From the NCBI GenBank assembly GCA_052387095.1, contig JBQTJN010000044.1, forward strand, positions 310 to 64,309: a stretch of DNA of 64,000 bases. Direction: 5' to 3'. Position numbers and translations under genes: made by a program. Below are positions 3,250-59,973 of the stretch, piece by piece; position 1 is the stretch's first letter, and each line of letters begins with the position of its first letter. Under the pieces are notes generated by a model that searched no databases, was not told the origin of the DNA, and saw only the letters and a program-made list of their open reading frames with translations. Source of the DNA: Alphaproteobacteria bacterium. Lineage in GTDB: Bacteria > Pseudomonadota > Alphaproteobacteria > Micavibrionales > Micavibrionaceae.

Positions 3250-3331
3250 GTCATTGCGAGGAGGCCGAAGGCGGACGCGGCAATCCAGAAAAGACTGGAT
3301 CGCCGGGCTCACGTTGTTCGCTCGCGATGAC
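3250..3331. repeat. Family-1 palindromic element (GTCATTGCGAG...GCAATCCAG / CTGGATCGC...CGCTCGCGATGAC)
   Basis: A long imperfect inverted repeat beginning 5 nt downstream of the last base of the eno stop codon. Its termini are shared with the copies at 4825, 22540 and 41491. Confidence 0.8.
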
Positions 3332-3410
3332 AGTATTAGAGTGTTCTCTCTTTGTACTCATTAAGTCACTGACTCTATTACGTTTTTCGCCTTGACGCCA
3401 CGAATCGGGT

Positions 3411-4811: not shown

Positions 4812-4824
4812 GATCTCTAATGGC

Positions 4825-4918
4825 GTCATTGCGAGCGAACGTTGAGAGCTAAGCAATCCAGGTGTGTGCTTTTAAGGAGACTCCTGGATTGCCGCGTCGC
4901 TTCGCTCTTCGCAATGAC
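4825..4918. repeat. Family-1 palindromic element between pdhA and pdhB
   Basis: GTCATTGCGAGCGAAC...AAGCAATCCAGG-loop-CCTGGATTGCCGCG...CTCTTCGCAATGAC. It starts 14 nt after the pdhA stop and ends 25 nt before the pdhB ATG. Confidence 0.85.
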
Positions 4919-4942
4919 GAAACTATGATTTGAGAGAAAAGA

Positions 4943-6391
4943 ATGCCGATTAAAATCCTGATGCCCGCGCTATCGCCGACCCTGACCGAGGGCACGCTCG
5001 CGAAGTGGCTGAAGAAGGAAGGCGATGCCGTGAAGGCAGGTGACGTCATCGCCGAGATCGAAACCGACAAGGCAACGATGGAGGTCGAAGCCGTCGATGA
5101 AGGTATTCTCGGGAAGATCCTCGTGCCCGAAGGCACGGAGCATGTTGCCGTCAATGCGGTGATCGCGGTGCTGGTGGAGGAAGGTGAAACTGTACCGGAG
5201 GATTCGTTTACCGACATTCCTTGTATTCCAAATCAAAACCCCTCACCCCAACCCTCTCCCGTCGGGAGAGGGAGGGACCCGCGCGAAGCGGGGGAGGGTG
5301 AGGGGCAAGCCTTTCAACCCGAAGGCCGCGTCATCGAAAACCGCGATATTTTATATGCGCAAGGGCACGTGCTTGAGCCGCCGCCGTTCGATGAATCCTC
5401 TTTCACCGAAATGAAAACCCAGACCGTGCGCGAAGCCTTGCGCGACGCCATGGCCGAAGAAATGCGCCGCGATAAGGATGTGTTCCTGCTCGGTGAGGAA
5501 GTCGCCGAATACCAGGGCGCGTATAAAGTATCGCAAGGCCTGCTGGACGAATTCGGTCCCAGGCGCATCATCGATACACCGATCACGGAACATGGTTTCA
5601 CCGGCATGGCTGTCGGCGCCGCAATGACGGGTCTCAAACCCATCGTCGAGTTCATGACCTGGAATTTCGGGATGCAGGCGATCGATCACATTATAAACTC
5701 CGCTGCCAAGACCTTATATATGGCGGGCGGCAAACTGGGCTGCCCGATTGTTTTCCGCGGGCCCAACGGCGCGGCCAGCCGCGTCGGCGCTCAGCACTCG
5801 CAGGATTATGCGAGCTGGTACGGTCACATTCCCGGCCTGAAAGTCGTCGCGCCATGGTCCGGCGCCGATGCCAAGGGCCTGCTCAAGGCCGCGATCCGCG
5901 ATCCGAACCCGGTTGTCGTGCTGGAAAATGAAATGATTTACGGCCAGAGTTTTGAAGTGCCGACGGATGAGGAATTCGTCATTCCCATTGGCCGCGCGAA
6001 AATCGAGCGCGCCGGAAATGATGTCACGATCGTGGCTTATTCCATTATGGTCGGCAAGGCGCTCGAAGCAGCCAAGCAACTCGCGGAGGAGGGGATCGAC
6101 GCCGAGGTGATTAACCTTCGCACCATCCGCCCGCTCGACCGGTATACAATTTTGGAAAGCGTAAGAAAAACCAACCGCATTGTCAGTGTCGAGGAAAGCT
6201 GGCCGTTCGCCGGTATCGGCTCGGAAATCGCCGCGCTCTGCATGGAGCATGCGTTCGATGATCTGGATGCGCCGGTGGTGCGCGTCTGCGCCGCCGATGT
6301 GCCGCTGCCTTATGCGGCAGGTCTCGAAGCGCTGGCCTCACCGCAGCCTCAACATATTATCGAGGCTGCGAGAAAGGTGTGTTACCGGTGA
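4943..6391 (+). CDS. pdhB: Pyruvate dehydrogenase E1 component, beta subunit, with N-terminal lipoyl domain
   Basis: The N-terminus ([14 protein letters not shown]) is a lipoyl-attachment domain, followed by a linker and then the E1-beta core ([35 protein letters not shown]). Confidence 0.95.
5239..5305. repeat. Family-2 palindromic element (CCCCTCACCC...GGGAGAGGG...GGGTGAGGGG) inserted in frame in the pdhB linker
   Basis: Has terminal inverted repeats plus an internal CTCTCCC/GGGAGAG hairpin. It is read through as [22 protein letters not shown] without a stop. A reverse-orientation copy lies in pdhC. Confidence 0.8.
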
Positions 6392-6399
6392 AAATCTTT

Positions 6400-6648
6400 T
6401 TAAGGGCTAGCGAAATAACGTTGGGCGTGTGCAACGGCTTCAATACCGCCAAGTACTTGTATAATTTTGCCAGAGATCTCTGGGGAAACTTGAGCTCCGT
6501 TTACAAGAAAATCCCTAACCAAATCTATCTCTACACCGGCACGACCGGAAATTTTTGCAACACTAAAAGCTCCGCCAGGTGCTATTTGACTATTTTGGCC
6601 GCCAAGTTGAGGGGTAAAATTTGTTTTCAAGAAAGAATCTTTGCTCAT
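6400..6648 (-). CDS. Hypothetical small protein (82 aa), antisense to the pdh gene direction
   Basis: ATG at 6648 (MSKDSFLKTNFTPQLGGQNS...) with a GGGGGT SD-like run about 8 nt upstream. It lies in an AT-rich 388-nt gap between pdhB and pdhC. I recognise no family. Confidence 0.35.
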   Translation of the reverse strand: MSKDSFLKTNFTPQLGGQNSQIAPGGAFSVAKISGRAGVEIDLVRDFLVNGAQVSPEISGKIIQVLGGIEAVAHAQRYFASP

Positions 6649-6779
6649 TACTGTTACCCCCAAAAATTAAGGTTATTTATAACAATTTGTGCGTTTATAA
6701 ACCAAATGATCTGGAAAGTCAAAAGAAAAGCATCCTTAAACCCTAATTATACGCAACTTTCTTATCAACGTGAGGTTGT

Positions 6780-8063
6780 ATGCCGATAAATATTACCATG
6801 CCGGCTTTATCGCCCACCATGACCGACGGCACGCTCGCGAAGTGGCTGAAGAAGGAAGGCGACGCTGTGAAGGCCGGCGATGTCATCGCCGAGATCGAAA
6901 CCGACAAGGCGACCATGGAGGTCGAAGCGGTTGACGAAGGCATTCTCGGAAAAATCCTGGTGCCCGAAGGTACGGAACATGTCGCCGTCAATGCCGTCAT
7001 CGCGATCCTGCTGGAAGAAGGGGAAGATAAGAGCGCGTTGGTTGCATCACCAAGTAAAATACAAAAGAAAGAGGAATCAAAACCGTCGGTTGTTCTGCCT
7101 CCCTCACCCTCCCGCGCTGCGCGCGGGTCCCACCCTCTCCCCACGGGAGAGGGTGATCGAGCGCAAGCGAGATCGGGTGAGGGGCAACGCATTTTCGCTT
7201 CCCCCCTTGCCAAACGCCTGGCAAGAGAACGCGGCATTGATCTTTTCTCCGTACGCGGCTCCGGCCCGCGCGGGCGCATTATCCGGGATGATATCCTGAA
7301 TGCCGGCAGTGGCCCCGGCGCCGCGCCTGCACGCCCCACCGGACCGGATGCAAAAAAACTCGCCGACCAGTTAGGCATGAAATACAAGGAAATTCCTAAC
7401 AATGCGATCCGCAAGATTGTCGCCGCGCGCCTGCAGGAATCGAAGCAACTCGTGCCGCATTTCTACCTGACCATTGATTGCGTCATCGACAATCTTCTGG
7501 CTTCCCGCAAGGACCTCAACGAGAAGGGGGAGGGCGCCTACAAACTCTCAGTCAATGATTTCGTCATCAAGGCCGCCGCCATGGCGCTGAAATCTTACCC
7601 GGCCGCCAATGTCGCCTGGACCGACGCCGCCATTCTCCAGTATGAAAGTGCGGATATCTCCGTCGCTGTCGCCACGCCGAACGGCCTGATGACGCCGATC
7701 GTCAAGGCCGCCGAAACCAAGGGTCTTAAACAAATCTCAGAAGAGGTGAAAGATCTCGCCAGACGCGCGCGCGATAGTAAGCTTAAGCCCGAGGAATTCC
7801 AGGGCGGCACCTTCACCATTTCCAATCTCGGCATGTACGGCATTAAGGATTTCGGTGCCATCATCAACCCGCCGCAGGCCTGCATCCTCGCCGTCGGCGG
7901 AGGGGTTGAACAGCCGGTCGTCGAAAATGGCGAAATCGTGATCCGCACTATCATGTCCTGCACGCTTTCCGTCGATCACCGCGCCGTCGATGGCGCGGTC
8001 GGCGCAGAATATCTGCAGACCTTCAAGAAATATTTGGAGAACCCCGTGAGCATCCTGCTATGA
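6780..8063 (+). CDS. pdhC: Pyruvate dehydrogenase E2 component (dihydrolipoamide acetyltransferase)
   Basis: Contains a lipoyl domain, an E3-binding domain ([16 protein letters not shown]) and a catalytic domain with the [11 protein letters not shown] motif. Confidence 0.95.
7100..7184. repeat. Family-2 palindromic element, reverse orientation, in frame in the pdhC linker
   Basis: CCCTCACCCTCCCGCGCTGCGCGCGGGTCCCACCCTCTCCCCACGGGAGAGGG...GGGTGAGGGG matches the reverse complement of 5239-5305, with about 20 extra nt. It is translated as [30 protein letters not shown]. Confidence 0.8.
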
Positions 8064-12077: not shown

Positions 12078-12107
12078 TTTGTCTACGTGCCGGCCATCAC
12101 ATTTTTT

Positions 12108-12162
12108 GCATCCTGACGAAAGTCAGGATCCATTTATGGATCCCAAATCAAGTTTGGGATGC
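12108..12162. repeat. Family-3 palindromic element (GCATCCTGACGAAAGTCAGGATCCAT...)
   Basis: Contains nested hairpins ATCCTGAC/GTCAGGAT and GGATCCCAAA/TTTGGGATGC. Its 5' ~30 nt are shared with the copy at 59888. Confidence 0.7.
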
Positions 12163-22537: not shown

Positions 22538-22539
22538 TC

Positions 22540-22623
22540 GTCATCGCGAGCGAACGGAGAGAGCGTGGCGATCCATCCCACTGTAAGCTGGATTGCTTCG
22601 TCGCTACAGCTCCTCGCAATGAC
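22540..22623. repeat. Family-1 palindromic element after hflX
   Basis: GTCATCGCGAGCGAAC...GGCGATCCA-loop-CTGGATTGCTTCG...CTCCTCGCAATGAC. It starts 3 nt downstream of the last base of the hflX stop codon. Confidence 0.8.
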
Positions 22624-31675: not shown

Positions 31676-31714
31676 GGAGGAGTGGCAGAGCGGTTGAATG
31701 CACCGGTCTTGAAA
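31676..31714 (+). pseudogene. Truncated tRNA-Ser 5' fragment (acceptor 5' strand through anticodon loop only)
   Basis: GGAGGAGTGGCAGAGCGGTTGAATGCACCGGTCTTGAAA matches the first 39 nt of the intact tRNA-Ser at 31855 with about 4 mismatches. It is followed by no anticodon-stem 3' strand, T arm or matching acceptor 3' strand. A short 3'-end-like piece (CATCCCCTTCC) lies near 31799-31812. Confidence 0.6.
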
Positions 31715-31854: not shown

Positions 31855-31944
31855 GGAAGGGTGGCAGAGCGGTTGATTGCACCAGTCTTGAAAACTGGCA
31901 GGGGTTCACGCCCCTCGTGGGTTCAAATCCCACCCCTTCCGCCA
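31855..31944 (+). tRNA. tRNA-Ser (anticodon UGA), class II with long variable arm, CCA encoded
   Basis: By hand folding: acceptor GGAAGGG/CCCTTCC, anticodon stem CCAGT/ACTGG with loop CTTGAAA (TGA at 31889-31891), variable arm CAGGGGTTCACGCCCCT, T arm GTGGG-TTCAAAT-CCCAC, discriminator G, then CCA. Confidence 0.93.
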
Positions 31945-39250: not shown

Positions 39251-39261
39251 ATAGAATTCCC

Positions 39262-39336
39262 GAATCTCAGAATCTCAGAATCTCGGAAATGAAGTTATTC
39301 TGAGATTACGAGATTCCGACACTCTGAGATTCCGAC
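39262..39336. repeat. 8-nt tandem repeat (GAATCTCA x3) facing inverted copies (TCTGAGATT, CGAGATTC, TCTGAGATTC), forming a multi-register hairpin between rpmA and obgE
   Basis: The left arm is 39262-39285. Right-arm units are at 39299-39307, 39309-39316 and 39323-39332. There is also a direct repeat GAGATTCCGAC x2 (39310-39320 and 39326-39336). The repeat ends 1 nt before the obgE ATG. Confidence 0.75.
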
Positions 39337-41486: not shown

Positions 41487-41490
41487 AACC

Positions 41491-41581
41491 GTCATTGCGA
41501 GGAGCGAAGCGACGCGGCAATCCAGAATGGTTATTGTGGCCTCTGGATCGCCACGCAACCTCGCAGGTTGCCCGCGCTGAC
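41491..41581. repeat. Family-1 palindromic element after proB
   Basis: GTCATTGCGAGGAGCGAAGCGACGCGGCAATCCAG-loop-CTGGATCGCCACG...CCCGCGCTGAC. It fills the gap between the convergent proB and GNAT gene ends. Confidence 0.8.
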
Positions 41582-59869: not shown

Positions 59870-59887
59870 GATTTATATCTTTTCTTT

Positions 59888-59951
59888 GCATCCGGACGAG
59901 AGTCAGGATCCATGGGGTATTACAGCTGGATCCTGATTTGCATCAGGATGC
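59888..59951. repeat. Family-3 palindromic element after atpF
   Basis: GCATCCGGACGAGAGTCAGGATCCATGG...CTGGATCCTGATTTGCATCAGGATGC. Its 5' part is nearly identical to 12108-12140. Confidence 0.7.
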
Positions 59952-59973
59952 ACGTTAATATAGATTTCATGTC

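Follow-up and report, generated by a model that had tools for sequence, protein, structure and literature searches.

BoxC/PIT-type palindromes in frame in the pyruvate dehydrogenase linkers of an alphaproteobacterium, and the association of their family with DUF559 genes

To what kind of element does a palindrome that is translated inside an essential enzyme belong, and how did it come to be there? The question is raised by a 64,000-nucleotide (nt) stretch of contig JBQTJN010000044.1 (the window), which derives from an uncultured alphaproteobacterium related to Micavibrio-like metagenome-assembled genomes (MAGs). Its pyruvate dehydrogenase (PDH) gene pdhB carries a 67-nt palindrome at 5239-5305, between the parts encoding the lipoyl domain and the enzyme core. 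Judged by sequence, this segment and a second one in pdhC are members of the BoxC/PIT/TM_ECO repeat family, in a compound form. The family as a whole is strongly associated with genes for DUF559 proteins, an association that is apparently unreported. Loci and proteins retrieved for comparison are cited below by handles beginning with L and P. The pdhB segment is organized as follows.

4943-6391, + strand: pdhB, pyruvate dehydrogenase E1 beta with an N-terminal lipoyl domain; intact open reading frame (ORF) of 482 aa with Pfam support; hosts the first copy
5239-5305, + strand: compound BoxC/PIT-type palindrome, in frame in the pdhB linker (PdhB residues 99-121); recognized by sequence, excess over chance and fold
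5239-5248: block b0, CCCCTCACCC, outer arm
5252-5272: hairpin 1, CCCTCTCCC-GTC-GGGAGAGGG
5278-5292: hairpin 2, CCCGC-GCGAA-GCGGG
5296-5305: block b3, GGGTGAGGGG, complementary outer arm

A first-pass annotation, made from the DNA letters, had described 5239-5305 as a palindrome with inverted termini and an internal hairpin, translated without a stop within pdhB, placed between the lipoyl domain and the E1-beta core, and tolerated because the linker there is flexible. On each of these points it was correct or, as regards the tolerance, is supported. The letters of the 67 nt are exactly those that it quoted, and the ends form 10-bp terminal inverted repeats (CCCCTCACCC / GGGTGAGGGG). A third purine block, GGGTGAGGG, lies on the same strand downstream of hairpin 1, at 5296-5304, and the second loop thus delimited is 23 nt long with its own hairpin inside. 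The fold check that the annotation had proposed gave a predicted three-way junction clearly more stable than shuffled sequences, with z about -5 (RNA, -48.6 kcal/mol, z -4.75). Single-stranded DNA folds of both strands of the pdhB and pdhC copies gave z values of -4.6 to -6.1 against shuffles. In the predicted Watson-Crick folds of both window copies, the third block pairs with a fourth block, CCCTCACCC. The G+C content of the two elements (67 and 85 nt) is 73-76%. Rfam at gathering thresholds returned nothing at either element, its sole match in the window being a tRNA at 31855.

By Pfam, the order in PdhB is lipoyl domain (residues 5-77), element (99-121) and Transket_pyr (160-333), all within the intact 482-aa ORF. 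An AlphaFold model built from 79 orthologues assigns residues 93-122 a predicted local distance difference test score (pLDDT) below 50 and no secondary structure, with confident domains on both sides. Together with the absence of the element from both genes of the relative L003, this agrees with an insertion that is tolerated in a flexible inter-domain linker. Four of the six frames are open in the pdhB element and five of six in the canonical BoxC unit. The stop-free reading is therefore weak evidence when taken alone, because most frames of either sequence are open anyway. If the loops are 3 nt long, the frame reading GGG AGA GGG continues into GGG TGA GGG and meets a stop; this is avoided by the 23-nt second loop in the pdhB copy and by a 2-nt loop in the relative L002.

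BoxC, PIT (potential intrastrand triplex) and TM_ECO are names of the same repeat, of which E. coli K-12 has 23 copies with the same blocks as the segment described here (PMC4666352). The literature on it extends from Bachellier et al. in the 1990s through Hoyne and Maher (2000, 2002) to Holder et al. (2015; PMC4666352). Over 260 genomes are on record as carrying the repeat, and instability of the local sequence has been associated with it. Isolated single-stranded PIT DNA forms a triplex, and none is detectable in duplex DNA or in vivo. Tests in vivo revealed no promoter, terminator or polymerase-blocking effect, and TM_ECO-type units have also been described as a putative G-quadruplex/hairpin/duplex switch. 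BoxC/PIT is an orphan repeat family, known since the 1990s, with no known mechanism of spreading.

The defining hairpin of Table 1 in PMC4666352, CCCTC(T/G)CCC followed by a 3-6 nt loop and GGGAGAGGG, is present exactly at 5252-5272 and again at 7133-7153. The three 9-mers and the hairpin geometry equal those of the 23 published E. coli K-12 units. The window copies thus have in common with the family the series CCCTCTCCC, a 3-5 nt loop, GGGAGAGGG and then GGGTGAGGG, together with a GC-rich composition, a distribution over many phyla and an occasional arrangement as inverted pairs. Published units are 34-37 nt long, with a second loop of 3 nt; in E. coli they are reported to lie always between genes, and no gene is associated with them. 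The window copies, in contrast, have a 23-nt loop containing a hairpin, possess the fourth block CCCTCACCC and are translated in essential genes. Two of these properties speak against a straightforward assignment: the second loop should be short (TTA or CCG; 1-6 nt in the ITxF definition) and is 23 nt, and this loop, with the Watson-Crick partner of the third block, does not fit the published triplex geometry. Since the blocks are the same while the loop is long and the third block is paired, we regard the window copies as a compound variant rather than the canonical unit. The family is otherwise known as many dispersed intergenic copies; within the 64 kb there are two copies, both intragenic.

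When one genome per species was searched for CCCTCTCCC-N3-5-GGGAGAGGG-N0-30-GGGTGAGGG, at least 120 genome stretches matched. The matches span Chloroflexota, Planctomycetota, Pseudomonas, enterobacteria, cyanobacteria, Verrucomicrobiota, Acidobacteriota, Bifidobacterium and others. Among the matches listed, 94 of 156 have a 3-nt second gap (a unit of ~33 nt), and long second gaps holding a second hairpin come mostly from alphaproteobacterial records. The same compound form occurs in Caulobacter (L100 and L074), where L100 equals the window copy at 49 of 53 positions, as compared by eye. The proposal of the first-pass annotation that an element family exists here is thus borne out insofar as the segment is an in-frame member of a dispersed palindromic family; that family is not peculiar to the lineage, being found in E. 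coli and in many phyla. In two Pseudomonas loci (L008 232-756 and L028 2784-3070), BoxC-type units lie ~150 nt apart and share a conserved 40-nt upstream flank (ttccaggtcgacgta...cggtcggcc); the unit apparently belongs there to a longer module that is repeated in tandem.

The second copy lies in pdhC, downstream of pdhB.

6780-8063, + strand: pdhC, E2 dihydrolipoamide acetyltransferase; intact ORF of 427 aa with Pfam support; hosts the second copy
7100-7184, + strand: second in-frame copy, in the pdhC linker, with the inner modules reversed (85 nt, PdhC residues 107-135)
7101-7109: block b0; the third block sits on the opposite strand and is read here as CCCTCACCC
7111-7127: hairpin 2, CCCGCGC/GCGCGGG
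7133-7153: hairpin 1
7155-7174: extra 20-nt hairpin, GATCGAGCGCAAGCGAGATC
7175-7184: block b3
4943-5188 and 6780-7025, + strand: lipoyl-domain coding repeat in direct orientation, 246 nt, 85% identical, just upstream of both elements

A repeat search of the window paired 5251-5304 with 7101-7154 (54 nt, 93% complementary), and the inner modules accordingly run in the opposite order in pdhC. Both window copies nevertheless finish ...GGGTGAGGGGCAA on the + strand. The earlier description of the pdhC copy as one in opposite orientation is therefore right for the inner modules and wrong for the ends. In PdhC, the Pfam order is lipoyl domain (4-77), element (107-135) and E3_binding (138-173), the element stopping 2 residues before the E3-binding domain. 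Its predicted RNA fold has -61.9 kcal/mol and z -5.9 against shuffles. The hairpin-1 core, with up to three mismatches, has two sites in the 64 kb (5252-5272 and 7133-7153), where 0 are expected (100 shuffles), and no degenerate copies were found in the 64-kb window at 2 mismatches per arm. The window gives no evidence of a multi-copy family in this genome, as its 64 kb hold no copies besides those of the two linkers. Exchange between the two linkers could use the lipoyl-domain coding repeat as its substrate. The pdhB-pdhC spacer (6392-6779, ~390 nt) contains doubtful ORFs only. This junction is variable too: the two genes overlap in L003, and different small ORFs lie between them in L002, L004, L206 and L207.

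We compared the linkers with those of relatives. PdhB of the window is 100% identical to the PdhB of an uncultured alphaproteobacterium MAG, and further relatives are 75-81% identical with lengths of 472-496 aa. Between the conserved PdhB motifs DIPC(I/V)P(N/Q) and Q.(E/S) the orthologues have a hypervariable stretch. Several of them carry other mosaics at the same site, so that the clean lineage-specific insertion of ~22 aa expected by the first-pass annotation is not what the alignment displays. The element is in neither pdhB nor pdhC of L003, and ordinary Ala/Pro linkers fill the pdhB site in other orthologues. The pdhB linker of L002 reads, in the same codon phase, CCCCTCACCC-CAA-CCCTCTCCCGGTGGGAGAGGG, 21 nt, and then CCCTCTCCCACCGGGAGAGGG-CA-GGGTGAGGGG. 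Its pdhC linker contains a 33-nt unit identical to that of its pdhB, in direct orientation and ending GGGTGAGGGGCAA on the + strand. In L001 and L004 the modules are combined into yet other mosaics, placed at the same sites and in the same codon phase, and L206 has a BoxC-type mosaic, likewise in phase, in pdhC. The L004 pdhC copy is orthologous to that of the window; the two are ~88% identical, including an idiosyncratic GATCGAGCG...GCGAGATC hairpin. Outside the element the linkers of L004 and the window cannot be aligned, and in the enzyme core their identity at third codon positions is only ~51%. As the pdhC copy is common to the window and to this distant lineage, at least that copy is old.

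BoxC-type linker peptides occur in at least 11 of the 79 PdhB orthologues, scattered among lineages that lack them. A neighbor-joining tree of the PdhB core did not separate one gain from several, all sequences being 76-83% identical, and only the patchiness stands. This patchy spread and the differing mosaics indicate that copies were repeatedly gained, remodelled or lost. Unrelated palindromes occupy the same linkers. The pdhB linker of L206 (2256-2417) holds an in-frame inverted doublet of a CGTC-tagged repetitive extragenic palindromic (REP) sequence. In the Micavibrio-like organism L207, the pdhB linker (2729-2890) holds a third palindrome family, GTCATCCTGAGCGCAAGCGAAGGATCTCC...GGAGATTCTTC...CTCAGAATGAC, in frame and encoding VILS..EGS...QND; peptides of this type are also found in P0020 and P0100. 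The occurrence of two unrelated palindrome families and varied mosaics at the same linkers indicates that such DNA is tolerated there. On this evidence, the lipoyl tethers of PDH are places where palindromes of at least three unrelated families recurrently land or are retained, and they preserve a record of selfish DNA turning into linker.

Family hairpins outside the pdh linkers were found neither in the 64-kb window nor in ~33 kb from six relatives. A linker motif of another kind, (A)VIP(A/S/V)PSNDD, is common to a large clade (~17 orthologues, e.g. P0026, P0029, P0036, P0044 and P0090). At one locus, L328 (~520-690), an imperfect 9-bp palindrome, GCTGTTATT...AAATGACAGC, codes for the VIPAPSNDD-type motif. 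The motif may tentatively be read, from this single locus, as a decayed in-frame REP (a GTCATT...AATGAC palindrome) that became fixed as linker.

In-frame copies are not confined to pdh genes. Among the matches listed, 41 of 156 are flanked on each side by an open frame of 60 codons or more. Six cases, from several phyla, have Pfam domains on both sides:

NAD-dependent DNA ligase (LigA), Planctomycetota
YgiQ radical-SAM protein, Polaromonas
methionyl-tRNA synthetase (MetRS), betaproteobacterium
transketolase, with the element connecting its N- and C-terminal halves, Nitrospirae
terminase large subunit, between its two domains, alphaproteobacterium
molybdopterin oxidase joined to cytochrome c, Variovorax

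Only Pfam-supported cases were counted. Spurious Arg-rich frames in high-GC genomes (L025, L012, L052, L048, L032, L058 and L006) were dropped, as was L014 (PrmC), which has a Pfam match at E 1e-5 or better on one side only. In the literature searched we found no earlier report of intragenic BoxC/PIT copies, and the in-frame occurrence of the family between Pfam domains appears to be new. A repeat that has been described as strictly intergenic can hence be carried and translated in essential enzymes.

The MetRS case contains more than a solo repeat. Two inverted elements flank a DUF559 domain (PF04480, E 1e-32), all in frame between the anticodon-binding and tRNA-binding domains. Whole DUF559 units with inverted BoxC-type flanks are found in frame at this place in the MetRS of two organisms, L018 (2110-2649) and L126 (1-2238), and also in a nucleotidyl transferase (L128, 913-2085). 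All six DUF559 ORFs in the pattern-selected loci listed (120 loci, 0.86 Mb) adjoin family members, several of them on both sides. The usual layout is b1-b2-b3, gene, b0-b1-b2, with the GGGTGAGGG/CCCTCACCC blocks turned toward the gene. In Caulobacter L036 the brackets are compound, CCCTCTCTC..GAGAGAGGG-AGGGGCCCG..CGGGA-GGGTGAGAG and its inverse, and of the same type as the window copies; compound brackets surround DUF559 also in L144, L183 and L190. The family pattern was present in at least 120 stretches of IMG/VR viral contigs, and all three DUF559 ORFs among these adjoin elements.

The association also holds in the reverse direction. In 80 metagenome loci picked by DUF559 protein similarity alone, a family hairpin lies within 250 nt of the DUF559 domain in 59, and on both sides of it in 42. 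The hairpin density is 3.5 per kb near DUF559 and 0.14 per kb in the outer flanks, a 25-fold difference (binomial p ~1e-64). Upstream hairpins end at a median of 64 nt before the DUF559 domain and are mostly in + orientation, and downstream hairpins start at a median of ~46 nt after it, mostly in - orientation. The DUF559 protein of E. coli K-12, YcjD, is a related case: its gene ends ..SPSP-stop in a degenerate BoxC-type hairpin, CCCTCGCTC-TTTCA-GGGAGAGGG (L125, 1590-1620). This hairpin is not among the 23 published TM_ECO copies, of which #9 is 168 nt away.

The DUF559 alignment has invariant D, E, D and H columns, and the domain matches the endonuclease-like structure 3HRL. DUF559 has been grouped with Vsr and with a homing endonuclease, and a homing endonuclease of Vsr fold is on record as PDB 3r3p (PMC3424549). 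In an independent report, DUF559 genes are 14-fold enriched among predicted inversion targets, i.e. genes flanked by inverted repeats. Judged by title and abstract, none of 25 papers that name DUF559, and none of the best-ranked 10 of 21 that name YcjD, connects them with these repeats.

Starting from the family identity of the pdh copies, their position, frame and disorder, their presence or absence among orthologues and the recurrence of the family in other genes and phyla, we consider it likely that the pdh segments are solo compound BoxC/PIT copies kept in linker DNA, and that their family is tied to DUF559 units. The compound form consists of the CCCTCTCCC/GGGAGAGGG hairpin and a second GC hairpin, enclosed by an outer stem of CCCTCACCC/GGGTGAGGG. 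Most probably the DUF559 endonuclease acts on such structured repeats, either by mobilising or copying them, as the REP-associated tyrosine transposase (RAYT) does with REPs, or by homing into repeat doublets. That DUF559 mobilises the repeats is what we infer from their arrangement around its gene. Solo copies such as those in pdh would then be non-autonomous products of DUF559 units. In an essential gene only frame-preserving, stop-free versions would survive, and their translation, Pro/Ser-rich and then Gly/Glu/Arg-rich, would merely lengthen the disordered linker between the lipoyl domain and the next domain. In this lineage the pdh copies would go back a long way, and exchange between the neighbouring linkers may be the only route by which they still spread or change.

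A wider proposal goes beyond the pdh genes, and we lean slightly against it while holding it quite possible. BoxC/PIT repeats may be the cis-acting ends or targets of a widespread selfish DUF559 unit, forming a third pairing of repeat and enzyme beside IS (insertion sequence) with MITE (miniature inverted-repeat transposable element), and RAYT with REP. Solo repeats (PDH linkers, LigA, terminase) and whole units (MetRS, nucleotidyl transferase) would both settle in frame in essential proteins as linker or domain material. The DUF559 link is a testable candidate for what spreads BoxC/PIT across phyla, and for what the common DUF559 proteins, including E. coli YcjD, do.

Several observations weigh against the explanation preferred for the pdh copies. 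In E. coli, BoxC/PIT/TM_ECO was reported to be always intergenic and to be unconnected with transposons, phages or plasmids (Holder et al. 2015, PMC4666352). The 64-kb window has no DUF559 ORF and no further element. The presence of the pdhC copy in a distant lineage makes that insertion ancient, not recent. Alignment of filled with empty linkers, which are very divergent, revealed no evident target-site duplication or clean empty-site junction. The 74% of loci with an adjacent hairpin in the reverse test holds for one DUF559 subfamily and not for all DUF559, because the query was built from element-adjacent genes and the 80 loci are those most closely related to it. Finally, the association does not give a direction, as the DUF559 gene may be a passenger of the repeats, may move them or may target them.

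The best-surviving alternative is an ancient, fixed relic: one old insertion in a pdh linker, inherited vertically, with the peptide or its length now serving as linker, moved between pdhB and pdhC by gene conversion via the 85%-identical lipoyl repeats, and with no mobile family active in this genome. We hold this account to be a credible contender, if a somewhat doubtful one. It would explain why copies are seen only in pdh linkers across the 64-kb window and the ~33 kb of six relatives, and it has a ready route in the 246-nt direct repeat just upstream of both sites. The pdhC copies of the window and L004, with their shared idiosyncratic hairpin and ~88% identity amid an otherwise unalignable linker, point the same way, as do the identical 33-nt units in direct orientation in the two L002 genes and the right junction GGGTGAGGGGCAA (+ strand) that L002 pdhC shares with the two window copies. 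The inverted inner modules speak against an origin by gene conversion between pdhB and pdhC alone, which was set aside for this reason; on the relic account, recombination or a template switch across the element's own 10-bp inverted arms would have turned the inner part round.

The shared blocks, however, are identical between lineages with ~50% identity at third codon positions, which passive inheritance does not predict. Moreover, different module mosaics occupy the same site, lineages free of the element are scattered through the tree, Caulobacter L100 has almost the same compound form, and the family is dispersed elsewhere, including in frame in unrelated genes. The relic account is compatible with the solo-copy explanation as regards family origin and differs from it only on present-day activity.

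An unlikely alternative is a selected nucleic-acid structure (junction, triplex or G-quadruplex) in the pdhABC mRNA or DNA, which could, for example, pause the ribosome for lipoyl folding or tune the downstream cistrons. A stability well beyond that of shuffles, the domain-boundary position in both genes, and palindromic blocks conserved above the neutral level would be expected of such a structure, and published biophysics provides the triplex of the core unit as isolated single-stranded DNA as well as G-quadruplex and hairpin forms. It is hard to reconcile with close orthologues that lack the element in both genes, and with unrelated palindromes or ordinary Ala/Pro linkers at the same place elsewhere. 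Moreover, the published PIT tests were negative for promoter, terminator and polymerase block, no triplex was seen in duplex DNA or in vivo, and the 23-nt second loop and paired third block misfit the triplex geometry. Chance low-complexity linker, convergent Pro/Gly-rich coding or a MAG assembly artefact is highly improbable: PDH linkers are naturally of low complexity and the source is a MAG, yet the two sites match at 93% over 54 nt, chance gives 0 expected matches of the core, the 9-mers are exactly those of the published family, and independent NCBI and ENA assemblies have related in-frame elements at the same sites.

The first-pass annotation had likened the element to the Rickettsia palindromic elements (RPEs), which are ~150 bp long, form ten families specific to Rickettsia and are frequent there, as the 44 integrations of R. 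conorii show (Ogata et al. 2000, reviewed in PMC10969869). The comparison is apt as a mode of behaviour: RPEs, too, are short palindromic repeats in frame in housekeeping genes, where they add a peptide at positions compatible with the fold, and the window copies likewise lie in frame at permissive sites of housekeeping ORFs. This is a likeness of behaviour and not of membership. By size, composition and host the window element is not an RPE: its length is 67-85 nt and its G+C content 73-76%, its family is pan-bacterial, and the 64 kb contain two copies; the distinction is drawn by description.

Intragenic MITEs (ERIC, Coxiella QMITE1, Nezha; PMC10969869, PMC5896051) resemble the window elements in their terminal inverted repeats, non-autonomy and occasional in-frame ORF fusions. 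At the junctions of the window elements no target-site duplication is evident, as compared with empty-site linkers that do not align, and no parent IS with matching ends was identified for them. Whole DUF559 units in frame at inter-domain positions of MetRS and nucleotidyl transferase recall homing endonuclease genes and inteins. They differ from inteins in having no splicing domains, in that the endonuclease stays in the host protein, and in flanks that are palindromic repeats rather than intron or intein boundaries.

The REP/REPIN and RAYT system (Nunvar 2010; Bertels and Rainey 2011; Di Nocera 2013, PMC3733652) has the same general plan of many solo palindromes and a rare bracketed gene of nuclease type. 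REPs are palindromes of 20-40 bp with a GTAG or CGTC tag at one end and a Y1 (IS200/IS605-like) transposase, whereas here there is no conserved tag and the bracketed gene is a small one for a Vsr-like PD-(D/E)XK endonuclease, DUF559 (PF04480). Neither tag is at either end of the window elements; the letters CGTC are confined to the hairpin loop of the pdhB copy, and the pdhC copy lacks them.

The window does contain REPs of its own, a CGTC-tagged family CGTCATTGCGAG...GCAATCCAG (of the type of Di Nocera 2013) at 34-71, 3295-3341, 4815-4861, 4884-4919, 22539-22576 and 41490-41525. Of these, 4815-4861 and 4884-4919 form an inverted pair in the pdhA-pdhB spacer, and 3295-3341 lies between the enolase and ftsB-like ORFs. 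The REP doublet in the L206 pdhB linker belongs to this same family. A different short palindromic repeat, TGCATCCTGACGAAAGTCAGGATCCA, has three copies (12102-12133, 59882-59913 and 59927-59952), the last two as an inverted pair, and a cluster of short direct and inverted repeats of GAATCTCAGAAT type lies at 39253-39332. The tRNA found by Rfam is tRNA-Ser (anticodon TGA, 31855-31944). A 39-nt, 90%-identical copy of its 5' part, which is not called as a tRNA, lies 179 nt upstream at 31676-31714, and could be a fragment left by integration or duplication.

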